A stretch of 64,000 nucleotides of DNA, from contig CAWAGQ010000004.1 in assembly GCA_963781585.1 (NCBI GenBank), forward strand, positions 320,001-384,000, given 5' to 3'. The notes under the pieces were generated by a model that saw only the letters and a list, made by a program, of their open reading frames with translations, did not search any database and was not told the DNA's origin. Of the stretch, positions 23,516 to 42,192 are shown in pieces (the stretch's first letter is position 1; each line of letters opens with the position of its first letter). Both the position numbers and the translations under genes were made by a program. Source of the DNA: an uncultured Gemmatimonadaceae bacterium (GTDB lineage: Bacteria; Gemmatimonadota; Gemmatimonadetes; Gemmatimonadales; Gemmatimonadaceae).

Positions 23516-24510
23516 ACGACAACGGCACCACCTCCACGCAGGACTTTCTCGTCGAGGCGGACAGTGATGTTCGCCTCGATTTGCTCGTGGCCAGGCAGCT
23601 CGACCTGTCGCGCAATCAGGCGGCGAGTCTGATCGCCCGCGGGCTCGTGACAGTGGCCGGGAAGCACGAAAAGGCGAGCTACCGCGCGCGCCCCGGCGAA
23701 CGCGTGGTCGTGACGGTGCCTCCAGCGCCGGCGCATCATGTGCTGCCGGAGTCGATTCCGCTGGTGGTGGCGTATGAGGACGAACACCTGCTCGTGATCG
23801 ACAAGCCGGCCGGCATGGTGGTGCATCCCGCCCCCGGCAACTGGTCCGGCACGCTGGTCAATGCGCTGCTCGGTCGCGCTGGCGAGGCGTTCCCGGCAAG
23901 CGCCCCGACCGAGCGCGCAGGGATCGTGCATCGACTGGACAAGGACACTTCGGGGCTGTTGCTGGTGGCCAGGACCGATCGCGCGCACCGGATTCTCGCC
24001 GACGCGCTTGCCGCGCGACGCGTCATTCGCCGGTATGCCGCTCTTACCTGGGGACACCTCGAGACGGACGCGTTGTCGATCGATCGGCCGCTGGCGCGCG
24101 ATCCGAGAGATCGGAAGCGGATGGCCGTGGTGCATGCCGGGAAGGCCGCGCGCACGTCGCTGGTCCGCCTGGCCCGTTTCGACGTCGCCGACCTGGTGCG
24201 CGCGCAGCTGCATTCGGGCCGGACCCACCAGATCCGTGTACATCTGGCGTCAATCGGTCACCCGGTGGTGGGGGACGATACGTACGGCGGAGGAGGCGGA
24301 CGGCGGGTGGTAGGACTGCCGCTCAAGCGACACTTCCTGCACGCCGCGTGGCTGCGTTTCCGGCATCCCGTGTCGGGAGCAGAGATGGACCTCCGGTCGC
24401 CGCTTCCGCCCGATTTGCGCGAATCGCTCGCCAGAGTCGCGCACGATGAGGCGGTGACGGCGCAGTCCGATCCACTGGAGGTCTTCGGGTTCTACGATGA
24501 CGGAGCCTGA
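23512..24510 (+). CDS. rluD: RluA/RluD family pseudouridine synthase
   Basis: S4 domain, KPAGMVVHP, catalytic HRLDKDTSG and GRTHQIRVH. Confidence 0.92.
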   Translation: MNDNGTTSTQDFLVEADSDVRLDLLVARQLDLSRNQAASLIARGLVTVAGKHEKASYRARPGERVVVTVPPAPAHHVLPESIPLVVAYEDEHLLVIDKPAGMVVHPAPGNWSGTLVNALLGRAGEAFPASAPTERAGIVHRLDKDTSGLLLVARTDRAHRILADALAARRVIRRYAALTWGHLETDALSIDRPLARDPRDRKRMAVVHAGKAARTSLVRLARFDVADLVRAQLHSGRTHQIRVHLASIGHPVVGDDTYGGGGGRRVVGLPLKRHFLHAAWLRFRHPVSGAEMDLRSPLPPDLRESLARVAHDEAVTAQSDPLEVFGFYDDGA

Positions 24511-24934
24511 AGGGGACGCCGAGCAGGTTCTCCTGCTCGAACTCGCCGGCGCGCTGTACGCCGTCGACAGTGCCGCGGTGCGCGAAGTGATCCCGACGAC
24601 GCCCGCCACGCGGCTTCCCGGTGCCCCGGGGTACGTGCGCGGAATCATGAACCTCAGGGGGCAGCTGCTGACCGTGGTCGACCTCGTCCAGCGGTTGACG
24701 GGAGCCGCGACCTGCAACCCGGAGGGCTCCACGATCGTCGTCCAGTCAGGCGAGCGAATGCTCGGCCTGAGTGTGGATGATGTGCGCCAGGTGCATGCGG
24801 TGGCGGTCTCCGGGGCCGGTGGCGTGTCCATCGATTTCCCGGGCCTGGGTCTGGTTCGTGGACTGGGACGTTTCGGCGACGAAGTCGTCATTGTCCTCGA
24901 CGTGGACGAGATCGTACGGCAGACGCTGGCGTAA
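24497..24934 (+). CDS. cheW: CheW adaptor (1)
   Basis: VREVI...LPGAPGYVRGIMNLRGQLLTVVDL...GLSVDDV. Confidence 0.9.
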   Translation: MTEPEGDAEQVLLLELAGALYAVDSAAVREVIPTTPATRLPGAPGYVRGIMNLRGQLLTVVDLVQRLTGAATCNPEGSTIVVQSGERMLGLSVDDVRQVHAVAVSGAGGVSIDFPGLGLVRGLGRFGDEVVIVLDVDEIVRQTLA

Positions 24935-24972
24935 ACGCGGGGGCTCCGGGCTCCCGGCAGGGAGAGATCACA

Positions 24973-25335
24973 GTGAGCCACACGGTACTGATCTGCGACG
25001 ATGCCATCTTCATGCGCACGATGCTGGGTGACATCCTCCAGCAGGCGGGCTTCGAAGTCGTTGGCGAAGCCGAAACCGGAGCGCAGGCGGTGTCCAAGTA
25101 CCAGGAGCTGCGTCCCGACCTGGTGACGATGGACATCGTGATGCCCGACATGGGGGGGATCGACGCGGTTCGTGAGATCACGAAACGCGATCCGGCTGCC
25201 AAGGTCCTGATGTGCAGCGCGATGGGGCAGCAGGCGCTGGTGGTCGAGGCCATCCAGGCAGGGGCGAAGGACTTCGTCGTCAAGCCGTTCCAGCCGAGCC
25301 GAGTGCTGGAGGCGGTCAATCGGGTGTTGGGCTGA
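24973..25335 (+). CDS. cheY: CheY response regulator (Bacillus/Thermotoga-like)
   Basis: DDAIFMR, phosphoacceptor motif TMDIVMP, CSAMGQQ and KPF. Confidence 0.93.
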   Translation: MSHTVLICDDAIFMRTMLGDILQQAGFEVVGEAETGAQAVSKYQELRPDLVTMDIVMPDMGGIDAVREITKRDPAAKVLMCSAMGQQALVVEAIQAGAKDFVVKPFQPSRVLEAVNRVLG

Positions 25336-25526
25336 ACGGCGCGCCGCGCGTGGTGCCAGCCACCGGATCCTGACGTGGCCGGTTGGCCGCGCCCTTGGCC
25401 AGCCGCCCGGCCCCTCCAGCCTCCGAGAGCCGTCGTCCATGTGTTCGCCCGGGTTTCGGAACGCGCCCCGATCGATCCGCGCGCGATAGTCGAGCCGGCG
25501 TCACTGACCCCCTTCGGTCCCGACCC

Positions 25527-27431
25527 GTGAACACGTCCAGGTACGCGGAGCTGTTCCTCAGCGAGAGCCGTGACAACCTCGTGTCCATCAACGAGGCGCT
25601 GATGGAGTTGGAGCGGGACCCGGCGGCCCCCGCGCACATCGACAGTCTGTTCCGCGGCGTCCATACGCTGAAGGGCATGGCGGGCGTGATGGGCCACAGC
25701 GCCGTGGTGGAGCTCGCCCATGAGCTGGAGACGGTTCTGGCACTGGTCCGCGACGGGGCCCGCGCGCTCACTCCCGACGATCTGGCGCTGCTGTTCGACG
25801 CGGTGGACGTCCTGGAGATGGTCGTCGAGCGCGTCGGCTCGGGGGAAGGCGCCGACGCCATGCCTGACGTGGCGGCGTTATGCGAGCGGCTGCGGTCTGC
25901 CAGCGGGGCCGCTGGTCCTCCGGTCTGGACGGCGACCGCCGAGCACCGGGTGGCGCTGCCGCCCGGCGACGGCGTGGCCGTGCACGTGAGCCTGTCGCCC
26001 GACGCGCCGCTCAAGGGGGCACGCGCGCTCCTCATCCTCCAGCGCCTGCGTTCGTTAGGCGAGATCACCGCCATGTCGCCGGCGGAGAGTGCGCTGCGCG
26101 AAGACAGCTTTGGCGGCGAATTCTCGTTCCGGGTGCGCACCGATGCGCCCGACGAGCAGCTGGCTGCCACGGTACGCGACGCCGGATACGTGCACACCGT
26201 CCGGGTGCGACGCGAGACGACGCCGGCGTCGGGAGCCGGACAGGCGGCGGAGCGGGCGGACGCCGCCTGGCTGTCGGGGGGTCTGAAGGCACCGCTGCAA
26301 CGCTACGTGCGCATCGACGTGCAGAGGCTCGACGGCCTGATGAATCTGGTCGGCGAGCTGGTGATCGCGCGCGGCCGGCTGGCCCGGGCGATCGCCTCCC
26401 ACGTCGACCCCGAGCTCGACGAAGCCGGCGCCACGGTCGCGAATCTGGTAGGCGTGCTGCAGGACGACATTCTGGACAGCCGGATGGTGCCGGTGTGGCA
26501 GGTTTTCGATCGGTTTCCGCGGGTGGTGCGAGACGCCGCGCGGACGCTGGGGAAGGAGATCGAGTTCGTCATCGAAGGACGCGAGATCGAGCTCGATCGC
26601 GCGTTGCTCGAACAAATCGGAGAACCGCTGGTGCACCTGCTGCGAAATGCGGTGGACCACGGCATCGAATCGGCGGCTGCGCGCAGGGAGAAGGGGAAGC
26701 CGGCCGCAGGTCGGCTGGTCCTCGGTGCCTCGCGCGACCGCTCGGCGGTGGTGATCCGCGTCACCGACGACGGGCGGGGCATCGATCGGCGAGAGATTCT
26801 CCGGAGGGCGCGGGCGGACGGCAGTGTGGATGACGAAAAGACGGATCTGACCGACGACGAGGTGTTGCGCCTGATCGCCCGACCGGGGTTTTCGACCGCC
26901 GAACAGGTGACGAATCTCTCGGGGCGGGGGGTCGGTGTGGATGCGGTGGTGAGTCGGATCCGCGCCCTGGGCGGCTCCGTGGAGCTGCGCAGCGAACCGG
27001 GACGGGGCACCACGATCGCCCTGCGGCTCCCGGTGACGCTGGCGATCATTCCGGCCCTTCTGGCACGTGCCGAGCAGGAGACATTTGTGCTCCCGCTCAC
27101 GCATGTCAGGGAGACGCTCCACCTCACCCGACACGTGGTGCGTCAGGTCCGGGGTCGGGACGTGCTGGTATTGCGGGATGACATCCTCCCGCTCCTCAGC
27201 TTGCGGGCGCTGGTAGGCCTTCCAACCCGCGACGCAGAGGGGAGCCAAGTCGTCGTATTGGAGATAGCGGACCGCCGAACCGGACTCGTGGTGGACCAAC
27301 TCCTGGGGCAGCAGGAGGTCGTGGTGAAGCCATTCGATCCGGTGCGTGGTGCCGCTGCGTGTTTCAGCGGCGCGACGATCCTGGGTGACGGCGCGCCGGC
27401 GCTCATTCTCGAGGCCACGAATCTGGTGTAG
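25527..27431 (+). CDS. cheA: CheA histidine kinase (P1-P5, no receiver domain)
   Basis: Hpt FRGVHTLKG; P2-like segment; HLLRNAVDHG, DDGRGID, PGFSTA, SGRGVG; C-terminal CheW-like domain. Confidence 0.96.
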   Translation: MNTSRYAELFLSESRDNLVSINEALMELERDPAAPAHIDSLFRGVHTLKGMAGVMGHSAVVELAHELETVLALVRDGARALTPDDLALLFDAVDVLEMVVERVGSGEGADAMPDVAALCERLRSASGAAGPPVWTATAEHRVALPPGDGVAVHVSLSPDAPLKGARALLILQRLRSLGEITAMSPAESALREDSFGGEFSFRVRTDAPDEQLAATVRDAGYVHTVRVRRETTPASGAGQAAERADAAWLSGGLKAPLQRYVRIDVQRLDGLMNLVGELVIARGRLARAIASHVDPELDEAGATVANLVGVLQDDILDSRMVPVWQVFDRFPRVVRDAARTLGKEIEFVIEGREIELDRALLEQIGEPLVHLLRNAVDHGIESAAARREKGKPAAGRLVLGASRDRSAVVIRVTDDGRGIDRREILRRARADGSVDDEKTDLTDDEVLRLIARPGFSTAEQVTNLSGRGVGVDAVVSRIRALGGSVELRSEPGRGTTIALRLPVTLAIIPALLARAEQETFVLPLTHVRETLHLTRHVVRQVRGRDVLVLRDDILPLLSLRALVGLPTRDAEGSQVVVLEIADRRTGLVVDQLLGQQEVVVKPFDPVRGAAACFSGATILGDGAPALILEATNLV

Positions 27432-27502
27432 CGACATGGTGCGGAACGGTGAGGCTGCAGCCGCGCCGCTCAACGCGTGACACCCACGGTTGGAGAAACG
27501 GA

Positions 27503-28123
27503 ATGCAAGAGCTGCTGAGTCTCAAGCCGGTGCAGATCGACGCGCTGCGCGAGGTGGCCAACATCGGCGCGGGTCACGCGGCGACGGCGCTGTCGCAGAT
27601 GACATCGCAGCGGATCATGATCAGCGTGCCGCGAATCAGCGTCACGCCGCTGGAAGAGGTACCGCCGCATCTGGGCCCGCCCGAGGAGCCGGTGGCCGCC
27701 GTCCTCATGAACATGCTCGGCGACCTGACCGGTCGGACGCTGCTGGTCTTTCCGAAGTCCACCGCGCTGCGGCTGGCCGAGATCCTGTTGCACAAGCCGG
27801 CGGGCACGTTTTCCGAGCTGGGCGAACTGGAGCAGTCCGCGCTGCAGGAAGCGGGAAACATTCTGAGCGGCGCCTACATGAATGCGCTGAGCGACTTCAT
27901 GGGACTCCTCCTGTTGCCGTCGCCGCCCAGTCTGGCCATCGACATGTCGCGCGCCGTGCTGACGACGGCGTATCTGCAGTTCGGTGCCGATCCCAACTAC
28001 GTGTTCTGTGTCGAGACCGAATTCCTCATGCGCGACGCGAACGAGCGGCTGCGCGGGTTCTTTCTGCTGCTGCCGGACCTCGCGTCGCTGCAGAAGATTC
28101 TGCGGGCCGTGCGGCTCGCCTGA
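27503..28123 (+). CDS. cheC: CheC phosphatase
   Basis: Two D/S-x3-E-x2-N sites: DALREVANI and SALQEAGNI. Confidence 0.92.
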   Translation: MQELLSLKPVQIDALREVANIGAGHAATALSQMTSQRIMISVPRISVTPLEEVPPHLGPPEEPVAAVLMNMLGDLTGRTLLVFPKSTALRLAEILLHKPAGTFSELGELEQSALQEAGNILSGAYMNALSDFMGLLLLPSPPSLAIDMSRAVLTTAYLQFGADPNYVFCVETEFLMRDANERLRGFFLLLPDLASLQKILRAVRLA

Positions 28124-28159: not shown

Positions 28160-30859
28160 ATGTCGCTTCCCACGGTGTTCCTCTCGGAGCGGGACCGCGA
28201 AGTCCTGCGGAGCTTCGCGCTGCGCGTCGACCCCGCGGATGCCGGATCGCACAACAACCTGGGCGTGCTCTACTACAACAAGGGCATGATCCCGGAGGCG
28301 GTCGAGGCTTTCACGCGCGCGCTCACCCTCGACCCGCAGATGTCGACCGCCGAACGCAATCTGCGCATCGCGTGGTGCGACAGCGGCGCCTTCGAAGAGC
28401 AGGTGAGGGCGCTTGGCGAACGTCTCGCGGCCGACGCGGCCGATCGGGACGCTCGTGACGCGCTGGCGAACGCGTATCTGATGGCCGGCGATTTCGACCG
28501 GGCGGTGGTGGAGCTTGAGCGGCTTGCCGACGCGCAGCCCGATGACGTGGACACCATCGTGCGCCTCGCCCGCGCGGAGCAGCGCCTCGGACATATGGAC
28601 GCGGCGTCGACCTGGCTGCGGCGCGCCCTCGGCTATCGCGAAAGCGACCCGCAGCTCCTGATGCAGTTCGCCGACGTCTCCTATCATCGCGGCCTCGATG
28701 CCGACGCTCTGGCGGCGCTGGAGCGGGTCGTGGAGCACGCCCCGCACCTGGCCGAGGCCCACTACCTGCTGGGGTTCGTGCTCGGTGATCTGGGACGGCA
28801 CGAGGAAGCGCGCGAAGCCACGCGGCGGGCGCTGCGGCTCAATCCGTCGTTAGGCAGGGCGCAGGCGAACCTGTCGCTGGGGCGTGACGGCCCGCTGGCG
28901 ACCCCGCCGGCCGAGGGCCACAACGAACCAGCACCCCTCGCAGGGGGCGCGCTGGCGCACTTCAATCTCGGCATCGCCTTTCGCCAGAAGGGCTACTACC
29001 AGGAGGCGCTCCGCGAGTATCGACTTGCCCTCGACCGCGGTGAAGATCGGGGCCTCGTCACCCAGGCGATGGCGGAAGTCCACCTCCTGACCCGCGAAAC
29101 CGGAGCGGCGGTCACGCTCTACGACCGGCTGGTTGGCAGCGCACCCGACAGCCCCAAGCTGTGGAACGAGCGCGGTGTGGTGCTGCATCAGGCCGGCCGG
29201 ATCGCGGACGCCCGCGCCAGCTACGAGCGCGCGGTCGGTGCGGATCCGGCCTATGCGCTCGCGCTGAACAACCTCGGTGTGGCACACTACCACGCCGGCC
29301 GCCACGATCTGGCGTGCGACGCGTTTCGCCAGTCCATGCTGGAGCAGCCGGCATTCGTCAAGGCCCGGCTCAACCTCGCGCTGCTGCTCTTCCGGCGGAA
29401 GGAGTTCGCGCTCTGCCTGGAAGCCTACCGACAGGTGCTGAATCTCGAGCCGGACCACGCGGTGGCGTGGAACGGCATCGGCCTGGTGCTCTCGGAACTG
29501 CACCAGATCGAGGATGCCCGCAACGCGTTCGGCCGCGCCATCGACGCGCGCCCCGACTACGCCGAGGCGCACTACAACCTCAGTTTCGCCCTGTCGCACC
29601 TCGGCGACTACGCCGGCGGCCTGCGCGAAACGAAACGCGCGCTGGAACTGGACCCGTTCTACGTTCCGCAGAAGTTCGAGCTCGCCATCGATCTCCAGTA
29701 CGAGAACCCGCGCGTGGCGATCGCACCGGAGCTGGGCGCCGACCAGCGACTGGACGGCGCGGTGGAAGAGTTCACGCTGGATGTCGGCGCGCTCGAGACC
29801 TTCTTCGACCAGCTGGCGCCCGCGACCCACGAGGAGCCGCCCGACGCTCCTGGCGGTCCGTCGTATGGGGTCGCGCGCGCGGCGGTGGCCGCGGGGCAGT
29901 TGCCGGCAGCTGCCGCCGAGACAAACCGTGTGCTCGCGGCCGGCGGAGCGCGTGGCGAGGGACTCGGGCTGCTCGGCGGCATCTTCATGCGACAGGGCGC
30001 GTTTGGCGAGGCCCTGGATCGCTTCCGTCAGGCGCGCACGGCGGACGCGACAGACCAGAGCGCGGCCATGGGTGAGGTGCGCGCGCTGCTGCTGCTGGGA
30101 CGTGGGAGCGAGGGGAGTGACCTGGCCGAGGACCTGGCCGCGCGGGCGGATTCCGATGTGGAGGCCCTGCTGCTGGTGGCGCAGGTGCGCGCCGAGCGGG
30201 GTGCACACGGCCCGGCCCTGGCTGCCCTCGATGCGGCGCGCCGCCTGGCTCCGGCGCGCGCCGACGTCCAGAAGGAGATCGGCGACGTGGCGCGTGCCAC
30301 CGGTGACGACGAGCGCGCGCTGGCGGCGTACCGCGCCGCGGTGGCGCTGGACCGCGGATTCGCGGCGGCGCGCGTGGAACTCGCAGCGTTGCTTCGTGGC
30401 CGGGGTAAGGTCGCCGAGGCCGAGCGGGAGCTGGAGGCAACGGTGCGCGATCTTCCGGCCTGTATGGACGCCGCGCTCGAGCTGGCCGACCTGCGCCGGG
30501 CACGGGGACGCCCCGAGGACACAATCGATGTCCTGGTGGAGGTCCTGCGTCGCGATCCGTACCAGCTGGACGTGCTCGTGTCGTTAGGCGAGTCGCTGTT
30601 CCAGTGCGACCGGCGGGGCGACGCCGCCGTGGCCTTCGCCCGGGTCCTCCGCTTCGACCCCGATCACGTGGGCGCCCTCTACTTCGACGGCGTGCTGCTC
30701 GGGAAGCAGCGGCGGTTCGAGGAGGCGGTGGCGCGCTGGCACCGGGTCATCGACCTCGAGCCGGCCAGCGACTACGCCAGGCGCGCGCGTCGCGACGCGC
30801 GGATCGCCGCAGACCTCCAGCGCATCTTCGTGGCGCACGAGCGCCGGGGAGCGGCCTAG
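28160..30859 (+). CDS. Large all-TPR protein (899 aa)
   Basis: Many TPR units (HNNLGVLY, HFNLGIAF, WNGIGLVL, HYNLSFAL); no signal peptide seen. Confidence 0.85.
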   Translation: MSLPTVFLSERDREVLRSFALRVDPADAGSHNNLGVLYYNKGMIPEAVEAFTRALTLDPQMSTAERNLRIAWCDSGAFEEQVRALGERLAADAADRDARDALANAYLMAGDFDRAVVELERLADAQPDDVDTIVRLARAEQRLGHMDAASTWLRRALGYRESDPQLLMQFADVSYHRGLDADALAALERVVEHAPHLAEAHYLLGFVLGDLGRHEEAREATRRALRLNPSLGRAQANLSLGRDGPLATPPAEGHNEPAPLAGGALAHFNLGIAFRQKGYYQEALREYRLALDRGEDRGLVTQAMAEVHLLTRETGAAVTLYDRLVGSAPDSPKLWNERGVVLHQAGRIADARASYERAVGADPAYALALNNLGVAHYHAGRHDLACDAFRQSMLEQPAFVKARLNLALLLFRRKEFALCLEAYRQVLNLEPDHAVAWNGIGLVLSELHQIEDARNAFGRAIDARPDYAEAHYNLSFALSHLGDYAGGLRETKRALELDPFYVPQKFELAIDLQYENPRVAIAPELGADQRLDGAVEEFTLDVGALETFFDQLAPATHEEPPDAPGGPSYGVARAAVAAGQLPAAAAETNRVLAAGGARGEGLGLLGGIFMRQGAFGEALDRFRQARTADATDQSAAMGEVRALLLLGRGSEGSDLAEDLAARADSDVEALLLVAQVRAERGAHGPALAALDAARRLAPARADVQKEIGDVARATGDDERALAAYRAAVALDRGFAAARVELAALLRGRGKVAEAERELEATVRDLPACMDAALELADLRRARGRPEDTIDVLVEVLRRDPYQLDVLVSLGESLFQCDRRGDAAVAFARVLRFDPDHVGALYFDGVLLGKQRRFEEAVARWHRVIDLEPASDYARRARRDARIAADLQRIFVAHERRGAA

Positions 30860-32005
30860 ATGGCGATCGAAGGCCCGCTCCGCGAGCTCGGCATCCACGA
30901 CGTCTTCCAGCTGCTCGACCTCAGCCGCAAGACAGGACGGCTGCGCGTCACCTCGGCCCTCCGCGACAACGAGGGCACGGTCACGTTTCACAACGGCCGC
31001 GTGGTCGGCGCGACCATCCGCACCAACCCGCACCCGATTGGCGAGATCCTCGTGAACGCCGGCAAGATCACCGCCGAGGAGCTGGATCGCGCGAAAGGGC
31101 TGCAGCGCCAGCCGGGTGAACAGCGGGCTCTCGGCGAGCTGCTGGTGAGCATCGGCGCCATCACCCAGCGCGAGCTGGAACGCCAGATCCGCCGGCAGAT
31201 CGAGGCGGTGGTGTTCGAGTTGATGTCGTGGCAGGAAGGATATTTCTGCTTCGCCGAAGGCGACCCCGGCGCCACCAACGGAGGCTGGCATGCCAGCCTC
31301 ACGGCAGAATCGCTGCTGATGGAAGCCGCTCGCCGAATCGACGAATGGACGCGGATTGCACACCGGATTCCGAGCATGACGGCACTGCCCGCCCTCGCCG
31401 ACGTGGATGGCGACCATCCGGCCTCCCTCGACCTGAGACCCAATGAGTGGGAGGTCCTGGCGCAGATCGACGGCGCGACCGACCTCCGGTCCATCGCCGA
31501 GCGGGTGGGGATGAGCGACTTCGACGTGGCCAAGGTGGTGTTCGGGTTGCTCTCGACCGGCGTGGTGACGCTGGTGGAGGGGCCGAGCGCGCCGCCGACG
31601 AACGACGCGAGGGACGACGCGGTCATGTTGCTCTCCGATGCGCGAGAGGCGCTTCGCGATACGCGCGCCAAGGACGCGCTGCAACACGCCGAGCGCGCGC
31701 TGCTCCTGTCGTCGGAGCTGGTCGAAGGCCGGATGGTGGCGGCACAGGCGCTGATCGCGCTCGAACGATTTGGCGAGGCGGAGCGACATCTCGAGCGCGC
31801 GCTGGAGACCGATCCGGACTCCGCGCAAGTGCTCATGACGCTCGCGCGACTCGCGGTCAGGCGCGGCGACCTCGATCGGGCCATCCAGGCCTGGTCGCGC
31901 GTCATCGAGACATCTCCGCAATCCGCGCAGGCCGAGCGCGCCCGCAAGGCGATGGCCTACGCCACTCGCCTGAACGCGCTCGTGGAGGTCGGCGGCGATG
32001 GTTGA
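30860..32005 (+). CDS. DUF4388 (PatA-N-like) plus TPR protein
   Basis: MAIEGPLRELGIHDVFQLL...KTGRL...WQEGYF.F...LLMEAARRIDEW, with TPRs at the C-terminus. Confidence 0.82.
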   Translation: MAIEGPLRELGIHDVFQLLDLSRKTGRLRVTSALRDNEGTVTFHNGRVVGATIRTNPHPIGEILVNAGKITAEELDRAKGLQRQPGEQRALGELLVSIGAITQRELERQIRRQIEAVVFELMSWQEGYFCFAEGDPGATNGGWHASLTAESLLMEAARRIDEWTRIAHRIPSMTALPALADVDGDHPASLDLRPNEWEVLAQIDGATDLRSIAERVGMSDFDVAKVVFGLLSTGVVTLVEGPSAPPTNDARDDAVMLLSDAREALRDTRAKDALQHAERALLLSSELVEGRMVAAQALIALERFGEAERHLERALETDPDSAQVLMTLARLAVRRGDLDRAIQAWSRVIETSPQSAQAERARKAMAYATRLNALVEVGGDG

Positions 32006-33668: not shown

Positions 33669-34274
33669 ATGCCGGTCGTCAACTATCCGTCGCGCGAAAT
33701 TACCTGCAAGATCGTCTACTACGGGCCGGGACGTTCGGGCAAGACCACCAACCTGCAGTACATCCACACGCGGGTTCCGGAGGACCGGCGCGGCAGGATG
33801 GTCTCGGTGGCCACGCAGGGCGATCGCACGCTGTTCTTCGATTTTCTTCCGCTCGATCTGGGGAGCATCTCGGGCTTCACGACGCGATTCCAGCTATACA
33901 CCGTTCCGGGCCAGGTGTATTACCGGTCCACCCGTCGCCTGGTGCTGCGTGGCGCGGACGGCGTGGTGTTCGTCGCCGATAGCCAGCGCCGCCAACTCGA
34001 GGAGAATGTCGAGAGCCTCCGCGACCTGCACGAGTTGCTGGCCGAGCAGGACGTGGACCCGCGGAGCCTGCCTCTGGTCCTCCAGTACAACAAACAGGAC
34101 TTGCCACGGGATCTCATCCTGAACGCCGGCGAACTGGACGAGGCGCTCAATTTCCGGAGCGCGCCGAGCTTTGCGGCCGACGCCCTCGGTGGTGCCGGCG
34201 TCTTCGAAACCCTTCGCCGCATGTCCGAGCTGGTGCTGCGACGCCTCAGCGCGCCTGCAGCAGCCGGGAGATAG
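33669..34274 (+). CDS. mglA: MglA small Ras-like GTPase
   Basis: KIVYYGPGRSGKTTNL, RTLFFDFLP, LYTVPGQVYY, DGVVFVADSQ and NKQD. Confidence 0.95.
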   Translation: MPVVNYPSREITCKIVYYGPGRSGKTTNLQYIHTRVPEDRRGRMVSVATQGDRTLFFDFLPLDLGSISGFTTRFQLYTVPGQVYYRSTRRLVLRGADGVVFVADSQRRQLEENVESLRDLHELLAEQDVDPRSLPLVLQYNKQDLPRDLILNAGELDEALNFRSAPSFAADALGGAGVFETLRRMSELVLRRLSAPAAAGR

Positions 34275-34277
34275 CAC

Positions 34278-36068: not shown

Positions 36069-37684
36069 TGGCCATCCGCGGCAGTCTCCGGGAAGCGAGC
36101 CTCCCCGATGTCCTCCAGCTGCTCGCCATGGGGAAGAAGACCGGCTGCCTCTCGGTCACCCACCGTCAGAGCTTCGGGACGATCTTCTTCGACAGTGGAC
36201 GCATCTGCTACGCCTCGATCGTCAACCGGCGTGACCGGCTCGGCGATCTGCTCCTGAAGCACGGCCTGATCACCCGTCCGCAGCTCGACGCCGCCGTCGC
36301 CGAACAAGTCGACCGACCCGACCGGCGTCTCGGTGAGATCCTCATCGCCGACGGCCTCCTGCAACCCGAGCAGTTGCGGGAGTACATCACCCATCAGATC
36401 CAGGAAGCAGTCTACTTCCTGTTCACCTGGACGCAGGGGACGTTCAGCTTCGAGCCCGATGTGCGCCCCGACACCCGGGACCTCCTGGTGTCGATCGGCC
36501 CCGAGTCCCTGCTGCTCGAGGGAGCGAGACGGGTGGACGAATGGAGTCTGATCGAAAAGAAGATTACCAGCTTCGATCTCATCTTCGCCCTCGATCGCGA
36601 GCACCTGACCGAAAGCCACGTCGACCTGACGCCCGAACAGGAGATTCTCGTTCCGCTCCTCGACGGACAGCGCGATGTCAGCGCGCTCACGGAAGAAACC
36701 GGGATGGACGACTTCGAGGTGGGCAAGGCGCTGTTCGGACTCCTCTCTGCCGGTTTCCTGCATCGCGCGGGACGCAGCACCGGCCCCGAGACCGTTGCCG
36801 GCGAGTCCCGCATCCTCGAGCACCGCAACCTCGGAGTCGCGTTCTACAGGACAGGCATGTACGACGAGGCGCTCCGCGAGTTCCGGCGGGTCGTCGAGCT
36901 GCAGCCGGGGGACCAGGTCGCAGAATTCCACATCGGTCTGGTGGCGCTGCGCCAGGACCGCCTGGATGACGCGATCCGCACATTTCGCGCGATTGGCGCT
37001 CGTGAGGCGGCACCGGCCTCGGTGTTCGTCAATCTCGCCCACGCCCTCGAGCGGTCGGGTCGATACGACGAGGCCCGCGCCGCGCTGGACGACGCGGAGC
37101 GGTTGCAGCCGCAGGAGCCGATGAGCGAGCTCGCACACGGCGTGCTGTCGTTGCGCCGGGGCGATGTGGAGGGCGCAGATCGACACCTGCAGTGTGCCGC
37201 CGAACGGTGGGGCGGGAAGGCGCGACCGGCAGCATGGTTTCACTACGCCGGTCTGGTGGCGGCGCTGCGCGGCGAGCTCGATCGAGCCACGGAGGTTCTG
37301 GAGCACGGGGTGGTGGCGTATCCACACGTCGCCGCACTGTACAACAACCTGTCCGTTGCCCTGGAGCGTCGCGGGCGCTACGCGGAAGCGTTGGCGGCGG
37401 CAGAGCGGGGGAGCGTGGAAGATCCGGCGCTGCCGCAGCTCCACAAGAACCTCGGCGATCTGCAGTACCGCGCCGGGCACTACGACGAGGCGCTCGACGC
37501 CTATCAGCGTGCGGTCCGGTACGACCCGGAGCTGGGCGGCGACGTCCATCTGAAGATGGGGAACGTGCGGTATCGACGCGGCGAGCGCGACGATGCGATG
37601 CGCTGCTGGGAGCGTTCGCTCTCGCTTGCGCCGGACAATCCCATGGCGAGGAACAACCTCGAGACCGCGCGACGGCTGACGTGA
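36068..37684 (+). CDS. DUF4388 plus MshEN-like motif plus TPR protein
   Basis: GSLREASLPDVLQLL..KKTG; tandem RLG..LL..GLI motifs; LLEGARRVDEW; multiple TPRs. Confidence 0.85.
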   Translation: MAIRGSLREASLPDVLQLLAMGKKTGCLSVTHRQSFGTIFFDSGRICYASIVNRRDRLGDLLLKHGLITRPQLDAAVAEQVDRPDRRLGEILIADGLLQPEQLREYITHQIQEAVYFLFTWTQGTFSFEPDVRPDTRDLLVSIGPESLLLEGARRVDEWSLIEKKITSFDLIFALDREHLTESHVDLTPEQEILVPLLDGQRDVSALTEETGMDDFEVGKALFGLLSAGFLHRAGRSTGPETVAGESRILEHRNLGVAFYRTGMYDEALREFRRVVELQPGDQVAEFHIGLVALRQDRLDDAIRTFRAIGAREAAPASVFVNLAHALERSGRYDEARAALDDAERLQPQEPMSELAHGVLSLRRGDVEGADRHLQCAAERWGGKARPAAWFHYAGLVAALRGELDRATEVLEHGVVAYPHVAALYNNLSVALERRGRYAEALAAAERGSVEDPALPQLHKNLGDLQYRAGHYDEALDAYQRAVRYDPELGGDVHLKMGNVRYRRGERDDAMRCWERSLSLAPDNPMARNNLETARRLT

Positions 37685-38196
37685 CGACCCGGACCGCCAC
37701 TCCTGCCGACGCCGCAGCGGGCGCCGAGATCGTGGTCAACGTCGCCGACTTCGGCGTGGCGCGCGAGCACGGCGTGCTCGCGACGTCAGGACTGGGATCG
37801 TGCGTGGCGATCATCATCTGCGATCGCATCGCACGGGTCGCGGCCATGGCGCACATTCTGCTTCCGGAACCGGACTTCCGTCGAGGGTCGCCCAATCCGG
37901 CAAAGTACCCGCAGACGGCCGTGCCGATGCTGCTCGACGAAATGCACCGGCTGGGCGCGATGGGGCCCTTCGAAGCGAAGCTGGCCGGAGGCGCAAGCAT
38001 GTTCGGCGCCCTGCTCGCAAGCGGCGTGAACATGGGTGAGCGCAACGTCGAGGCGTCGCGCCGGGCATTGGCGGATGCGCGCATCGCGCTGGTGGCCGAA
38101 GACGTGGGCGGAGGTCATGGACGGAGCGTGTTCGTGGACGTCGCGTCGGGGCGCGTGCGGGTGAGTTCTCTCCAGCGGGGCGACCGTGTCCTCTGA
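37681..38196 (+). CDS. cheD: CheD glutamine deamidase
   Basis: GLGSCVAI (catalytic Cys), AHILLP, AKLAGGASMF, GERN and DVGG.HGR. Confidence 0.92.
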   Translation: MTTRTATPADAAAGAEIVVNVADFGVAREHGVLATSGLGSCVAIIICDRIARVAAMAHILLPEPDFRRGSPNPAKYPQTAVPMLLDEMHRLGAMGPFEAKLAGGASMFGALLASGVNMGERNVEASRRALADARIALVAEDVGGGHGRSVFVDVASGRVRVSSLQRGDRVL

Positions 38197-39286
38197 ACGC
38201 CGCACGGTGCTGGTCGTCGACGACAGCGCGCTCGTCTGCCGCGTGGTCGCCGACCTGATCGAGGCCAGTGCCGACTTCCGCGTGGCCGGCATCGCCCGTG
38301 ACGGCTTGGACGCCATTCGCAAGCTGCACAGCCTCGAGCCCGACCTCGTCACGCTCGACGTGCAGATGCCGGATCTCGACGGCCTGCAGACACTCGGCTA
38401 CATCATGAGCGAGGCGCCGCGACCCGTGATCATGCTCAGCGCGCTGGATTCGCTGGGCGGTGCGGATCTGACCATCAGGGCGCTCGAGCTGGGTGCGGTG
38501 GATTTCGTGCGCAAGACCGGGCCTGACGACGCGCTCGATCCGAGAACGCTCCGCGATCGTCTGCTTCGGGCGCTCCGGGGGGCGCGAAACGTGAACCTCC
38601 GCGCCGCATCGGTGCTGGCCCGGCCGCTCGCCGCCCGCAAGTCCGCGCGCCCGGGTGAGAAGCCCGCCACTCATGTCGTGGCGATCGCCGCGTCCACCGG
38701 AGGGCCGCGGGCGCTCGCCGAAATACTGCCGGCGCTTCCCGGAGACCTCGGTGCGGCGGTTCTGGTGGTGCAGCACATGCCGGCCGGGTTCACTGAGAGC
38801 CTGGCGCGCCGCCTCGACCGTCTCGCATCACTTGCCGTGGGCGAGGCGGTAGACGGGGAGGTCCCGCTTGCCGGCCATGCCTACATCGCGCCGGGGGGCC
38901 GCCATCTGACGCTCAGTCGTGACGGTGGGGCCACGCGCCTGGCGGTCGGCGCCGGTGCCGCTGTTCGCGGAGCGCGACCGTCGGCCGACCTGCTGTTCGA
39001 CTCGGTCGCCGAACATCTCAGGGCGGCGGCGGTGGGTGTGGTACTCACCGGGATGGGGCACGACGGCGCCGCGGGCCTGAAGCGCATGCGTGGCGCGGGC
39101 GCCTACGCCCTCGTTCAGGATCGCGGGACCTCCACCGTATACGGCATGCCGATGACGGCGCTCGCACACGCCGGTGCAGATCGGGTGGTGCCGCTGTCGG
39201 AGATGGCGCCCGCGATCCTGGCCGCCCTGGAGGCGCGGGGAATGACGCGCCGCGATGTGACCACCGAAGATCCGATTCTGTCCTGA
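38186..39286 (+). CDS. cheB: CheB methylesterase with receiver domain
   Basis: Receiver (VVDDS, LDVQMP); catalytic ASTGGP, QHMP and GMGHDGA. Confidence 0.95.
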   Translation: MSSERRTVLVVDDSALVCRVVADLIEASADFRVAGIARDGLDAIRKLHSLEPDLVTLDVQMPDLDGLQTLGYIMSEAPRPVIMLSALDSLGGADLTIRALELGAVDFVRKTGPDDALDPRTLRDRLLRALRGARNVNLRAASVLARPLAARKSARPGEKPATHVVAIAASTGGPRALAEILPALPGDLGAAVLVVQHMPAGFTESLARRLDRLASLAVGEAVDGEVPLAGHAYIAPGGRHLTLSRDGGATRLAVGAGAAVRGARPSADLLFDSVAEHLRAAAVGVVLTGMGHDGAAGLKRMRGAGAYALVQDRGTSTVYGMPMTALAHAGADRVVPLSEMAPAILAALEARGMTRRDVTTEDPILS

Positions 39287-39355
39287 GTAGGGAGCGGGGG
39301 TGGGTCCGGATCTCCGGTTCACCACCCCGCGCCTTCGTATCCGATCCACCTGTCG

Positions 39356-39886
39356 ATGCCCGAATCCGACGTGCTCCAGAACGTTGCTCCGCCAGCCCCG
39401 CCGCATGACGCATCGCCGCTGCGTTTTCGCGAGCGCGTGCGGCAGCGCATCGGCACGGCCGACCTTCTGCTCTTCCGGGTGGGACGGGAGGGGTTCGGAA
39501 TCGAGATTCGCGCGGTGGACGAAGTAGTGGAGTCGCCGCGACTGCGGGTTCTTCCCGATGCCCCGGCGACGCTGCTCGGCGTATTCACGCTGCGCGAGCA
39601 GCTGCTCCCGCTGTACGCGGCATCGCTGGTGCTCGGTCAGGAAGCCGAGGCGCCGGACCTGGCACTCGTCATGCGCAGCGGATTGCGGCGGGTGGGGCTG
39701 GCGGTGGACGACGTGGAAGAAGTTGTGGCCGTTTCCATGACCGACCTGCGGGATCCGCCTCCGGGAATTGGCGACGACGATGTTGTGGCCGGACTGGTCT
39801 GGCGCGATGGCCGGATCATCACCGTGCTCGATGCCCGCGCCCTGGTTGCGGCATGCGCCTCGGTGGCGCATCCGGCGGTTCCATGA
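39356..39886 (+). CDS. cheW: CheW adaptor (2)
   Basis: LLFRVGREGFGI..VDEV...LPDAP..LLGVFTLR...GLAVDDV. Confidence 0.82.
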   Translation: MPESDVLQNVAPPAPPHDASPLRFRERVRQRIGTADLLLFRVGREGFGIEIRAVDEVVESPRLRVLPDAPATLLGVFTLREQLLPLYAASLVLGQEAEAPDLALVMRSGLRRVGLAVDDVEEVVAVSMTDLRDPPPGIGDDDVVAGLVWRDGRIITVLDARALVAACASVAHPAVP

Positions 39887-40359
39887 CCACCATGACCGGC
39901 AGCTCGCGCATCATCACGTTCCGTCTCGGCGACGATCTGTTCGCGGCCGACATCTTCGCCGTGGAGCGGGTGCTGCGATACGACGCGCCCCGGGCAATCC
40001 CGAACGTACCCGACTGGATCCGCGGCGTGATCGAGTACCAGGGGCGCGTCGTGCCGGTCGTGGACCTCCGGCGTCGCTTCGGCCTTCCCGAGGCCGACGT
40101 TGGTCCGCAGGCCCGGATGCTGGTCCTCTCGTCAGGCGGGGAGTGGGTGGCGGTCATCGTCGACCTGGTTCTCGACGTGCGGCCACTCGAGGAGGCGGCA
40201 CTGTCGCCGCCGCCCGCGCTGTTCCGCGGGCTGGCCGGCGAATACCTGCGGGGTCTGACGCGTCGGGGAGAGTCGCTGGTGGTTGTGCTGGACGTGGACC
40301 GCCTGCTCTCCAGTCAGGACCGGCTGGTGCTGGCGCCCGCCCGGGGGGCGGATGCCTGA
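39883..40359 (+). CDS. cheW: CheW adaptor (3)
   Basis: ITFRLG...IPNVPDWIRGVIEYQGRVVPVVDLRRRF. Confidence 0.9.
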   Translation: MTTMTGSSRIITFRLGDDLFAADIFAVERVLRYDAPRAIPNVPDWIRGVIEYQGRVVPVVDLRRRFGLPEADVGPQARMLVLSSGGEWVAVIVDLVLDVRPLEEAALSPPPALFRGLAGEYLRGLTRRGESLVVVLDVDRLLSSQDRLVLAPARGADA

Positions 40360-41233
40360 TCCGGCGCGAGCGTCCCTTCGTCTCCGGTTCGAGGGCATCG
40401 GGCAGGCCCTCGACGCACCCGGTGCATCCGGCCACAAGGCCGAGCTCAAGGCCGAGATCATCGCCCTCTTCAAGGCGGTGGATCGCGAGGTGGCCGACCT
40501 CGCGGTCCTGCGCGACGAAGTAAAGGGTCTGGTTACGCGGTGGAAGGCGCTGGACGGGGATGAGGCCGAAGCCAGTCGGGGCGCGGAACCCGCCCCGCCG
40601 CCGGCGGCGCCGACCGTGTCGGGACCCACCCGGGCCGATCACCTGAACGCGTCGAGCCACATCGAGAAGGGGTGGAGCCTCATTTCGCTGGGCGACTGCG
40701 CATCGGCCGAACAGGCGCTGCACAAGGCGCTGTCGCTGGTGCCTAACGACTTGCAGGCCGAGTCGTTGCTGGGATGGGCGCAGATGCTGCAGGGCAAGTA
40801 CGACGACGCGCTGCTCAACTTCCAGCAGGTCCTGTGTCAGGAGCCGGCCAATGCCCTGGCTCGAGTGAACGTGGGGTACATCTGCCTGAAGAAGGGCATC
40901 TTCGGCGAAGCAATCGAGCACCTGTCGCGCACCATCCGCCTCGACAACGATCGGAAAGCGACGCTCTACGCCCACTACTACCTGGGCCTGCTGTACCTGG
41001 AACGTGAGATGTTCGACGATGCCGAGAGCTTCCTGCGCAAGGCCATCTCGCTTGGACCCAACCTGGTGGAAGCGTACTACGAGCTCGGGCGCGTGCTCTG
41101 GTTCGCGGGCAGCGCCGAGGCCGCGTCGCAGGCGTGGCGCGACGGCGTGTCGGCGAACAAGTTCAGTCCATGGGGGAAGCGCTGCGCCGAGATGCTGCGG
41201 GAAGTCGAAGCCGGCGGCGTGCTCACGCGCTGA
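40352..41233 (+). CDS. TPR protein with N-terminal coiled coil
   Basis: About five TPR units (AESLLGWA, ARVNVGYI, AHYYLGLLY, AYYELGRV). Confidence 0.8.
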   Translation: MPDPARASLRLRFEGIGQALDAPGASGHKAELKAEIIALFKAVDREVADLAVLRDEVKGLVTRWKALDGDEAEASRGAEPAPPPAAPTVSGPTRADHLNASSHIEKGWSLISLGDCASAEQALHKALSLVPNDLQAESLLGWAQMLQGKYDDALLNFQQVLCQEPANALARVNVGYICLKKGIFGEAIEHLSRTIRLDNDRKATLYAHYYLGLLYLEREMFDDAESFLRKAISLGPNLVEAYYELGRVLWFAGSAEAASQAWRDGVSANKFSPWGKRCAEMLREVEAGGVLTR

Positions 41234-42192
41234 TCCTCGCCGGTGCGGTCGCCCTCGCGGCCGCGCCGCCCGGAGCCGCCCAGCTCCCGTTAGGCATGCA
41301 GCAGGTGACGGCCGGCCGGTTTACCGTCGCGGCCGAGCCGGGAGACATGCAGCTGGCGCGGGCGCTGCTCGGACGGGCCACCGCCAGGGATACGTTCCCG
41401 TGGCTGCCGCGCCCGCACGAGCCGGTCCTGATCATCGTCGCCCCCGACCGCCGCACCTTCCGGGCACTGGTCGGGCCGGCGGCTCCCGAATACGGCGCCG
41501 CCATCGCCATCCCGGCCGAGCGGCGCATCGTCATGCAGGGCCACAACGCGGCGTCGGATGCCGGTGATCCGCTCGAGGTGCTCCGTCACGAGCTCGCACA
41601 CCTGGCGCTCCACGAGCGGCTGGACAACATCCCGCCTCGATGGTTCGACGAGGGGTACGCGTCGGTGGCGGCCGGTGAGTGGGGTCGCGACGAGGTACTG
41701 GCCACGAATGTTGCGCTTGCCTTGCGCGGCATGCCCTCGCTCGATGCGCTCGACGCACAGTTCGCGGGAGGCGCCGGACAGGCGACCGCCGCCTATGCGC
41801 TGGCACACCGTGCGGTCGTGGAACTCGCGGCGCTCGATCCCGAGCGTGGCCTGTCGCTGTTCTTCGACTATTGGCGCCAATCGGGAGACTTCGACGCCGC
41901 CATTCGTCAGGCATTCGGCATTACCGAATCGGACTTCGTGCAACGCTGGCGCGACCACACGCGCCGTCGCTATGGCGGCCTGGCGCTGTTCGCGGATCTC
42001 ACGATCGGTGCGCTCGTGCTGCTCTTCGTCATCACACCGTTGTACCTCGTGCGGCGCGCCCGAGACCGCGCGCGTCTGGAACGCATGGCGGACACGGAAG
42101 CGCGGGTGGAGCAGCAGGCCCGCGATACTGCCATCGAGGAGCTTCTGCGGAGCGTTACCCCGCCGTCCAGCGACCGTCGCCCCGACACGTGA
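41170..42192 (+). CDS. Membrane-anchored peptidase MA-like (HEXXH) protein
   Basis: Signal-like N-terminus, HELAH...PRWFDEGYA and a C-terminal TM helix. Start uncertain. Confidence 0.72.
   Translation: MGEALRRDAAGSRSRRRAHALILAGAVALAAAPPGAAQLPLGMQQVTAGRFTVAAEPGDMQLARALLGRATARDTFPWLPRPHEPVLIIVAPDRRTFRALVGPAAPEYGAAIAIPAERRIVMQGHNAASDAGDPLEVLRHELAHLALHERLDNIPPRWFDEGYASVAAGEWGRDEVLATNVALALRGMPSLDALDAQFAGGAGQATAAYALAHRAVVELAALDPERGLSLFFDYWRQSGDFDAAIRQAFGITESDFVQRWRDHTRRRYGGLALFADLTIGALVLLFVITPLYLVRRARDRARLERMADTEARVEQQARDTAIEELLRSVTPPSSDRRPDT

Follow-up and report, generated by a model that had tools for sequence, protein, structure and literature searches.

Why should the genes of a Ras-like polarity GTPase and its presumed partners lie in the middle of a chemotaxis operon, and what might the two gene sets do together? 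The question is raised by a locus of an uncultured Gemmatimonadaceae bacterium (assembly GCA_963781585.1), found within 64,000 nucleotides of contig CAWAGQ010000004.1 (positions 320,001 to 384,000 of the forward strand), a stretch that is referred to below as the window. Positions 24497-42192 (+) of the window carry 18 co-directional, tightly packed genes, in which a chemotaxis (che) core is interrupted by an eight-gene cassette containing mglB and mglA. We suggest, with a probability of about one half, that this is one conserved transcription unit of the Gemmatimonadota, in which a Thermotoga-like che core and an inserted polarity cassette form a coupled hub.

The che core and the cassette have been kept as a packed unit through deep divergence within the phylum, which argues for their co-expression, and very probably they serve a shared job. 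The nature of this job is considered below, after the evidence for the unit and its components.

Organisation and conservation of the che-mgl unit

Pfam, NCBIfam and PDB sequence searches bore out the content and order of the 18 genes, all on the + strand, that an earlier note had read from the sequence. The 5' che block (cheW1-cheY-cheA-cheC) is followed by the inserted cassette, which encodes, in this order, a TPR protein, a PATAN/TPR protein, a TPR/roadblock fusion, a roadblock protein, MglB, MglA, a tandem DnaA-domain-III ATPase and a PATAN(MshEN)/TPR protein. The 3' block consists of cheD-cheB-cheW2-cheW3, a TPR gene and a gene for a membrane metallopeptidase. The cassette is indeed placed between cheC and cheD in the window, and between cheC and cheR/cheD in the relatives. 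The remark that CheC and CheD are partners fits their best PDB matches, which are two chains (A and C) of a single entry, 2f9z.

The gene starts were refined from the sequence, and several of them overlap the preceding stop codon as GTGA, ATGA or TGATG. Overlapping or abutting genes are found at nine or ten of the 17 junctions, according to which start is taken for the peptidase gene; the widest gap, between cheB and cheW2, is 69 nucleotides. At the 5' end, the rluD stop overlaps cheW1 by 14 nucleotides, an overlap that had already been pointed out. The window is GC-rich (0.62-0.73). In a consensus scan of positions 24000-43999 no terminator-like site with more than three G-C pairs was found inside the unit, and the tight packing in the absence of such a site is consistent with a single transcription unit.

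The related loci recovered in a scan of genomes support this organisation. Among the 80 loci listed, 74 were ordinary dnaA genes of other phyla and six were Gemmatimonadota relatives (L001-L006). The earlier note had proposed that its reading be given up if the gene order were not conserved in relatives; tblastn searches with the window proteins found the same order in all six Gemmatimonadota loci, in which the ATPase is 45-58% identical to that of the window. In L006 (21.8 kb) the order is rluD-cheW-cheY-cheA-cheC-TPR-PATAN/TPR-TPR/Robl-Robl-mglB-mglA-ATPase-PATAN/TPR-cheR-cheD-cheB-cheW-cheW-TPR-peptidase-tRNA-Val-TPR-tRNA-Asp-rsmH, so that the flanks match as well, with rluD on the 5' side and tRNA-Val, a TPR gene and rsmH on the 3' side. 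L005 is organised like L006 from rluD to the peptidase gene, except that the small roadblock gene went undetected; L003 spans rluD to the ATPase gene, and L001, L002 and L004 cover inner parts.

Both borders of the cassette are kept wherever a locus reaches them: the cheC-to-TPR junction in three of three loci (L003, L005 and L006) and the PATAN-to-cheR/cheD/cheB junction also in three of three (L001, L005 and L006). Directly upstream of cheW1, rluD is found in L003, L005 and L006, and the peptidase-like gene is present in L005 and L006. Identity to the window proteins varies between the components: 86-88% for CheY (L003, L005 and L006), 73-78% for MglA, 61-69% for CheC and 36-51% for the roadblock proteins. 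Orthologues of the second PATAN protein are 65-76% identical and nearly fixed in length, whereas the 899-residue TPR protein is 49-53% identical in five loci and the 293-residue TPR protein 55-56% in L005 and L006.

Table 1. Genes of the che-mgl unit and the features adjoining it, with their positions in the window and the matches on which the assignments are based
Feature	Position	Strand	Basis
rluD, pseudouridine synthase (5' flank)	23443..24510	+	Pfam PseudoU_synth_2 2.3e-28 and S4; start uncertain (longest open reading frame from 23182)
cheW1	24497..24934	+	Pfam CheW 6.3e-29
cheY, single-domain response regulator	24973..25335	+	Pfam Response_reg 9e-32
cheA (Hpt, P2, dimerisation, HATPase, CheW-like)	25383..27431	+	five Pfam domains
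cheC, family of phosphatases of phosphorylated CheY	27449..28123 (start may be ATG 27503)	+	Pfam CheC 2.2e-23
899-residue cytoplasmic TPR protein, first cassette gene	28160..30859	+	many TPR families (Pfam)
PATAN (DUF4388)/TPR protein 1	30860..32005	+	Pfam DUF4388 4.5e-31
TPR-Roadblock/LC7 fusion	31998..32870	+	Pfam TPR_2 7.8e-8, Robl_LC7 1.5e-5 (25.1 bits, cut-off 23)
stand-alone Roadblock/LC7, 115 residues	32867..33214	+	Pfam Robl_LC7 24.2 bits (cut-off 23)
mglB-like roadblock, 151 residues	33211..33666	+	PDB MglB 6h5b/6izw E 5e-9; GTG start overlaps preceding stop (GTGA)
mglA	33669..34274	+	PDB M. xanthus MglA 5ymx/6h17 E 6e-68
tandem DnaA-domain-III AAA+ ATPase, 596 residues	34278..36068	+	Pfam Bac_DnaA 5e-102, two stretches
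PATAN (DUF4388)/MshEN/TPR protein 2, 538 residues	36068..37684	+	Pfam DUF4388 7.9e-40; ATG overlaps ATPase stop by 1 nucleotide
cheD	37681..38196	+	Pfam CheD 1.1e-24; GTGA overlap with preceding stop
cheB (receiver and methylesterase)	38186..39286	+	Pfam CheB_methylest 5e-61, Response_reg 1.4e-20; NCBIfam PRK00742 360 bits (cut-off 293)
cheW2, 176 residues	39356..39886	+	Pfam CheW 3e-25
cheW3	39883..40359	+	Pfam CheW 9.6e-35; ATGA overlap
293-residue cytoplasmic TPR protein	40352..41233	+	TPR families (Pfam)
membrane-anchored HExxH metallopeptidase-like protein, last gene	41170 (or 41296)..42192	+	Pfam Peptidase_MA_2 29.4 bits, below gathering score 32.4
terminator-like hairpin	42283-42299 (42283..42309 with T-rich tail)	+	consensus scan; sole + strand site with 5 G-C pairs in 24000-43999
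tRNA-Val(TAC)	42532..42605	+	Rfam 75.8 bits; ARAGORN

The che core and the proteins of the cassette

CheA of the window scored 470 bits with the NCBIfam model CheA_Halo (archaeal CheA) versus 336 bits with the E. coli-type CheA model, and its best solved relatives are CheA fragments of T. maritima (PDB 1b3q, E 3.8e-97). CheC matched NCBIfam CheC_Thtogales (1.6e-51) and chain A of 2f9z (E 1.7e-32), and CheD matched chain C of that entry (E 6.5e-33). Over residues 2-118, CheY shares about two thirds of its residues with the T. maritima protein (1tmy/4iga; E 7e-51), and its C-terminal third is nearly unchanged. As CheA, CheC/CheD and CheY are closest to Thermotoga-type relatives, the che half looks like a conventional Thermotoga-like (F1-like) chemotaxis core and not like an exotic phosphorelay; F1-like is used here as a descriptive label. 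The reference sequences and models matched by CheA (Thermotoga and archaeal) belong to class F1. Pfam and NCBIfam searches detected no receiver domain fused to CheA, and in the whole cluster such domains are confined to CheY and CheB.

The near-identical C-terminal stretch of CheY presumably corresponds to the alpha4-beta5-alpha5 region. Since this stretch is about the same as in T. maritima CheY, the default output is probably an ordinary motor, to which the Che proteins would signal through CheY; the phylum has polar flagella. F1 systems, some of which belong to diderms, have been assigned to flagella or archaella (PMC13747009). Gemmatimonas cells bear a single polar flagellum, a cheA gene rising together with flagellar genes upon calcium supply (PMC9862903).

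Among the 54 open reading frames of the window scanned with Pfam, there were no genes for methyl-accepting chemotaxis proteins or other chemoreceptors, CheR, flagella or pili, which for flagella and pili agrees with what had been noted before; the chemoreceptors are encoded elsewhere than in this unit. CheC, CheD, CheB and three CheW proteins are present in the window. CheR was found only in L001, L005 and L006, where cheR separates the second PATAN gene from cheD (at about 8150-9076, 13611-14429 and 13371-14342, respectively), i.e. in all three relatives that cover this spot. It is absent from the entire 64-kb window (best tblastn E 0.3), in which cheB and cheD are retained. The product of cheW2 has a proline-rich N-terminal extension of 36 residues ahead of its CheW domain (39356-39470). 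This extension loosely recalls the adaptor ParP and is shorter in L006, where the CheW domain begins at residue 23.

The GTPase of the cassette is by its sequence a bona fide group-1 MglA. The match to M. xanthus MglA (Table 1) covers residues 2-194, that to T. thermophilus MglA (3t12) has an E-value of 9e-63, and the P-loop GPGRSGKT and the TVPGQ motif are invariant in seven of seven sequences. The significance for MglA of a threonine in place of the aspartate of the DxxGQ motif has been described (PMC3000849). The mglB gene lies 2 nucleotides upstream of mglA. The PDB match of its product to MglB extends over 99 residues, yet the protein reached only 20.7 bits with Pfam Robl_LC7 (cut-off 23) and 25.7 bits (1e-5) with the NCBIfam MglB model, far under the cut-off of 200. 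It is best described as an MglB-like roadblock protein and a putative GTPase-activating protein of MglA. Two further roadblock domains, in the TPR fusion and in the stand-alone protein, clear the Pfam cut-off narrowly, and the stand-alone protein also matched the PDB roadblock structure 7yh1 (E 8.4e-5).

Group-1 MglA is known to occur in Gemmatimonadetes, and the neighbourhoods of group-1 genes vary widely and occasionally include PATAN genes (PMC4316618). The supplement of this survey lists two group-1 MglA loci for G. aurantiaca T-27, GAU_1115 ('MglB>MglA>') and GAU_1409 ('PATAN>MglA>-PATAN>'), as well as an orphan MglB, GAU_1541. Gemmatimonadota may thus carry a second Mgl module beside the one embedded among the che genes.

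Both PATAN (DUF4388) proteins are fused to TPR repeats, and neither contains a receiver domain recognised by Pfam. The second one has a helical insert (residues 57-110) with two canonical MshEN-type motifs for cyclic di-GMP (c-di-GMP) and scored 53.3 bits with NCBIfam NF053729 (cut-off 38). The first one has degenerate MshEN-like motifs and, at 36.9 bits, stays under the cut-off. The MshEN consensus reportedly consists of two 24-residue motifs, RLGxx(L/V/I)(L/V/I)xxG...Q, with a short spacer between them. The second PATAN protein is accordingly a putative c-di-GMP binder through these motifs. Its structural model (predicted local distance difference test, pLDDT, 84.5) comprises the PATAN beta-structure with the helical insert, a small alpha/beta segment and a TPR solenoid of 300 residues; Foldseek searches with this model returned TPR proteins only. 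Winged-helix matches in the segments following the PATAN domains fall short of the threshold (18.8 versus 27.1 bits; E 0.038) and are a lead only.

Several published observations bring PATAN proteins close to MglA and to pili. Some DUF4388 proteins carry a GspE_N/MshEN-type domain, and MglA/MglB genes recur near PATAN genes (bioRxiv 10.1101/2021.06.11.447907); PATAN-receiver regulators of Synechocystis bind the pilus motor PilB1 (PMC9090330); in myxobacteria, the MglA effector SgmX occurs together with PATAN proteins and a TPR protein (PMC11580455).

No hydrophobic segment or signal peptide was found in the cassette proteins, the 899-residue TPR protein included; in the cluster only the product of the last gene has them. 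That this product is a peptidase, as the earlier note had it, is partly sustained: its Pfam score is under the cut-off (Table 1), but it has an HExxH motif (HELAH), a signal-like N-terminus and a C-terminal hydrophobic membrane helix.

The most unusual member of the cassette is the tandem ATPase, apparently a lineage-specific new protein architecture. It is composed of a full AAA+ domain with lid (residues 1-235), a disordered stretch (236-258), a helical domain (about 259-350), a lidless AAA+ core (356-531) and a disordered tail, formed by the last 60 or so residues and ending in a conserved C-terminal motif. The N-terminal copy spans domain III of DnaA in full, lid included, and matches that of B. 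subtilis (PDB 8bv3) with an E-value of 1.3e-52. In the structural model (pLDDT 86.5), Foldseek aligned this copy with 8bv3 at a template modelling (TM) score of 0.94, a root-mean-square deviation of 1.6 A and 42% identity. Alignments of 40 and 16 family members show that each of the two copies has retained Walker A, Walker B and the box VII arginine, and sensor II is kept. DnaA domains I and IV were not detected by Pfam, the chain starting directly with the AAA+ domain. The helical domain is confidently modelled and has no Pfam or atlas relative outside its own family: the linker (residues 255-356) gave no usable atlas match outside Bac_DnaA clusters, and Pfam searches with linker and tail gave nothing significant.

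In a phylogenetic tree the N-terminal and C-terminal halves of the ATPase formed separate clades (support 98 and 99), outside 45 true DnaA cores; the tree is unrooted, was obtained with a quick method and comprised 14 of the 40 family rows and 45 of the 74 DnaA cores, with no Gemmatimonadota DnaA. The separate clades imply that the tandem fusion is as old as the ATPase family. Two identities were considered and rejected. The protein is not the replication initiator DnaA, as it contains domain III only, twice, without domains I and IV; its summed TIGR00362 score exceeds the cut-off because there are two domain-III copies. Nor is it Hda, given the tandem layout, a score of 161.7 bits with Hda models (E 1.9e-47) versus a cut-off of 194.8, and the lack of an N-terminal extension, which in Hda carries the clamp-binding motif.

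The ATPase family looks phylum-restricted, judged among proteins carrying organism names. It is a large family with very many full-length members: among the 120 best-matching clusters, identity to the window protein is 52-95%, and every match with an organism name is a Gemmatimonad*. In a library clustered at 50% identity, the tandem layout and the linker are retained by dozens of representatives, some of them as little as about 30% identical. A search started from a distant member (36% identical to the window protein) returned named matches that all belong to Gemmatimonadales/Gemmatimonadota. Among ten clusters listed in an atlas search, Gemmatimonadota was the commonest phylum in eight, Actinomycetota in one, and one had no record.

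The structure co-prediction that the earlier note had called for was run for MglA and the ATPase and gave weak support. MglA (7-row alignment) with GTP and Mg was co-folded with the ATPase (16-row alignment), with a median score of 0.46 (runs 0.48, 0.46 and 0.42) and 0.00 for the best of three controls; the runs agreed in at least 82% of contacts and the partner pLDDT was at least 80. When the tool was calibrated, 116 of 157 solved complexes attained the mark, as did 2 of 215 mismatches. Passes of 0.60 or less comprise 18 of the 157 solved complexes and both passing mismatches and are rated more often wrong than right unless the pair was likely beforehand, and the alignments and ligands used here depart from the calibration conditions. 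The co-fold gives a slight push towards MglA and the ATPase as partners, and no more.

Boundaries of the unit and neighbouring genes

Upstream of the unit lie tilS, hpt, ftsH, folP, a TMEM260-like gene, yggS, divIVA, a gene for a PNP-type phosphorylase, ileS, dksA, lspA and rluD. Downstream, the division and cell wall (dcw) cluster extends from 44622 with rsmH, ftsI, murE, murF, mraY, murD, ftsW, murG, murC, ftsQ, ftsA and ftsZ. The distance of about 2.4 kb to this cluster had been correctly estimated (it begins 2.43 kb past the peptidase stop); the hairpin and tRNA-Val (Table 1) in the spacer bound the che-mgl cluster from the dcw genes although the two are adjacent. The evidence from the hairpin is weak, since the consensus scan found 3 terminator-like sites versus 7.2 expected. 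The sole promoter-like site of the scanned region (42228-42256) is located 3' of the last gene. In L006, too, the peptidase gene is followed by tRNA-Val (18747-18820), and tRNA-Asp (20710-20784), which is absent from the window, precedes rsmH there.

Besides the hairpin and tRNA-Val, the spacer contains a TPR gene of the 600-residue class (42616-44412, +), with a counterpart at the same position in L006 (18946-20628; 23% identity). The TTG start listed for this open reading frame (42547) falls inside tRNA-Val, and the true start is therefore later. The gap between the TPR gene and rsmH is 209 nucleotides (44412-44622), leaving no room for mraZ, a gene that commonly heads dcw clusters.

Some features of the rest of the window may be recorded here. 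The ileS gene is split over two overlapping open reading frames (19030-20580 and 20390-22570, +); the Pfam tRNA-synt_1 match breaks and resumes at profile position 200, indicating a frameshift near 20507. The site shows no homopolymer run, and either an assembly error or a real disruption could explain it. Two full-length pntB genes (NAD(P) transhydrogenase beta) lie in tandem at 1946-3487 and 3764-5152 (-), adjoined by a pntA-like AlaDh/PNT gene (5578-6675). An open reading frame of 598 residues (61816-63612, +), 3' of an M23 peptidase gene, has no Pfam match, and one of 1000 residues (6777-9779, -) has a weak PD40 repeat match only.

Possible role of the cassette and comparison with known systems

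No published description of this che-mgl arrangement was found in the literature searched, in keeping with its earlier description as an uncharacterised module. The system is built from known kinds of parts, and their arrangement suggests that sensing and the choice of a pole are coupled here in a manner not studied so far. Of the proposal that it links a phosphorelay to a GTPase switch, the conserved Che-Mgl unit stands, with a Thermotoga-like core as its che half, and the assumed direction of the coupling is not supported: a reverse logic, in which the cassette positions the chemosensory array as ParC/ParP do, is at least as likely as an action of phosphorylated CheY on MglA.

In the hub that we propose, GTP-bound MglA would be confined to one cell pole by MglB and the roadblock proteins, and would recruit the TPR and PATAN scaffolds and the ATPase. 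The hub would fix the pole at which the chemosensory array and a motility organelle, i.e. a polar flagellum and/or type IV pili, are assembled, and would re-establish this pole at division. It might be modulated by c-di-GMP, via the PATAN insert, and possibly by phosphorylated CheY. In other bacteria such a job is done by ParC/ParP or by PpfA with a ParA-type ATPase. We favour a role in positioning and pole identity because the che genes look complete and conventional, with a motor-type CheY, because the cassette is without a receiver domain, because the phylum is polarly flagellated, and because in two other cases NTPases with a positioning role are encoded within che operons. In Vibrio, parC and parP lie within a che operon and hold the arrays at the pole, and PpfA has a related job in R. 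sphaeroides (PMC5706961).

Several points weigh against this proposal. Every functional statement made here is inferred from gene neighbourhood and family knowledge. The related loci are only six, all of one phylum, and L005 and L006 alone span most of the cluster. The small roadblock gene went undetected in L005 at the threshold used, although there is a space of 386 nucleotides there. None of the 54 open reading frames of the window encodes a receptor, flagellar or pilus protein in Pfam searches, and with cheR missing the adaptation branch may here be decaying or encoded elsewhere. As two MglA loci are listed for G. aurantiaca, the MglA of this locus may be a specialised paralogue, with a role unlike that of textbook MglA. 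The co-fold of MglA with the ATPase passes in the weak band. Finally, Pfam and NCBIfam searches gave no match to the ParA/MinD family in any cluster protein and recognised no ParP-type protein, so the positioning analogy is a functional one only.

The chemosensory genes might instead command the cassette, in a manner resembling the Frz system. Phosphorylated CheY, reset by CheC, would bind a PATAN-TPR or roadblock protein and flip MglA between the poles, so that receptor input would move the activity of type IV pili, or of some other polar machine, from one pole to the other, perhaps alongside flagellar control. We regard this as unlikely, though it is the alternative to be taken most seriously. 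The cassette lies directly 3' of cheC; no protein of the cluster is more conserved than CheY, as expected of a protein with many partners; and the PATAN domain, which in cyanobacteria is fused to a receiver in output regulators binding PilB1 (PMC9090330; bioRxiv 10.1101/2021.06.11.447907), is here encoded by separate genes of one operon with CheY. In M. xanthus, moreover, Frz works on MglA via receiver proteins; the Frz and Mgl modules are encoded there in separate loci (PMC4316618). None of the cassette genes encodes a receiver domain, and the absence of a CheA-fused receiver, of a FrzZ-like dual receiver and of a RomR-like protein goes against the Frz analogy drawn in the earlier note. The single CheY, with its T. 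maritima-like C-terminal region, points to a conventional motor target, F1-type systems are described as flagellar or archaellar (PMC13747009), and no pilus gene lies in the window. It is less probable still that the two gene sets merely share a location, a polarity operon having been inserted in the che operon of an ancestor of the phylum and kept since operon breakage is costly. The proteins would then act independently, one set for example in chemotaxis and the second in gliding, pili or the choice of a division site under the control of MglA. The neighbourhoods of MglA genes 'vary widely' and che genes are not reported among them, CheA and CheW being mentioned nowhere in supplement file 3 of the survey (PMC4316618); apparently unrelated genes are found at both ends of the unit (rluD and the membrane peptidase), and the window has lost cheR and kept the cassette. 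However, the order is unchanged in six of six loci even though most cassette proteins are down to 36-58% identity, start/stop overlaps run from the ATPase gene through the PATAN gene to cheD, across the border of che genes and cassette in the 3' half, and positioning NTPases within che operons have precedents (PMC5706961).

Least likely of all is a coupling to replication or the cell cycle, in which the tandem ATPase would act on true DnaA, like Hda or a filament cap, under the control of the polarity switch, and pole identity would be tied to replication initiation. The close likeness of the N-terminal copy to B. subtilis DnaA domain III (42% identity, 1.6 A, TM 0.94), the retained box VII arginine and sensor II, and the fact that Hda, a regulator of DnaA, is also a domain-III-only protein are compatible with it, as is the position of the cluster between divIVA/ileS and the dcw genes, conserved in L006. 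Yet the protein has no domain I, no domain IV and no N-terminal extension for a clamp-binding motif, and its gene is embedded among mglA and PATAN genes and not among replication genes. Proximity to division genes counts for little when a genome is compact, and between the unit and the dcw genes lie a tRNA gene and a hairpin. The link to the cell cycle in the earlier note, drawn from the DnaA-like fold and this neighbourhood, is unsupported. No paper joining DnaA-like proteins with MglA was found in the literature searched. A more specific form of the idea is yet more improbable: the ATPase would be an MglA-controlled switch that hetero-oligomerises with true DnaA or caps it, so that the pole to which the chemosensory and motility apparatus passes would also be licensed for, or barred from, replication initiation. 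The phylum is polarly organised, and Gemmatimonas reportedly divides by budding. Readings as a predation or a defence system were dropped, as no family match points there; predation, suggested in the earlier note, found no support.

Whichever of these readings applies, the locus deserves attention. Communication between a chemosensory system and MglA has been worked out only in Myxococcus, where the modules are genetically separate and joined by lineage-specific receiver proteins; a second, independent arrangement with both modules in one operon is a natural experiment on which contacts are essential. The locus also brings in two further partners: a double ATPase of the DnaA clade, so far seen only under Gemmatimonadota labels, and PATAN-TPR proteins that carry c-di-GMP motifs. 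If the cassette positions arrays, as we propose, this would be a third solution to array positioning, one not relying on ParA; if it is an output, Frz-like logic would extend beyond myxobacteria; and if the ATPase caps or joins DnaA, a direct molecular link would run from a Ras-like polarity GTPase to the replication initiator. Cultured Gemmatimonas species, which are polarly flagellated and for which transcriptome data exist, allow direct tests.

Among known systems, Frz with MglA/MglB/RomR of M. xanthus shares with the locus a phosphorelay of the CheA/CheW/CheY type together with a group-1 MglA and a roadblock protein of the MglB type, as well as further roadblock proteins, such as MglC of M. 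xanthus, and TPR effectors such as SgmX. The Frz components FrzE (a CheA-receiver fusion), FrzZ (a dual-receiver protein) and FrzCD (a cytoplasmic receptor) were not found here by Pfam and NCBIfam searches, and neither was RomR/RomX. Conversely, the locus combines in one operon what M. xanthus keeps in separate loci, adds two PATAN-TPR proteins and a tandem DnaA-like ATPase, and has Thermotoga-like che genes with CheC and CheD.

The ParC/ParP system of Vibrio and Pseudomonas and PpfA/TlpT of Rhodobacter sphaeroides resemble the locus in that an NTPase and adaptors are encoded inside a che operon, near cheW, in polarly flagellated bacteria (PMC5706961). Their NTPases, however, are of the ParA/MinD kind, whereas those of the cassette are a Ras-like GTPase and an AAA+ protein of the DnaA clade. 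In the cyanobacterial PatA-type PATAN-receiver proteins (Tax/Pix), PATAN is likewise encoded together with chemotaxis-like genes, and these proteins bind PilB1 and set the direction of movement (PMC9090330; bioRxiv 10.1101/2021.06.11.447907); in the locus, PATAN is fused to TPR instead of a receiver, and one copy carries two MshEN motifs in a helical insert.

With DnaA and Hda, the tandem ATPase has in common the AAA+ fold of domain III and its motifs (Walker A, Walker B, box VII and sensor II). It differs in having two domain-III copies per chain, a family-specific helical joiner and a lidless second copy, in lacking domains I and IV, and in its genomic context of polarity and chemotaxis. The hub of Bdellovibrio, finally, is said to consist of MglA, a TPR protein (Bd2492), CdgA and RomR, and thus reportedly combines MglA at one pole with a TPR partner and a c-di-GMP receptor, as the hub proposed here would do. 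In the Gemmatimonadota locus, however, the putative c-di-GMP module is an MshEN motif within PATAN and not a degenerate GGDEF, an MglB-like protein is present, and the whole is operonic with the che genes.

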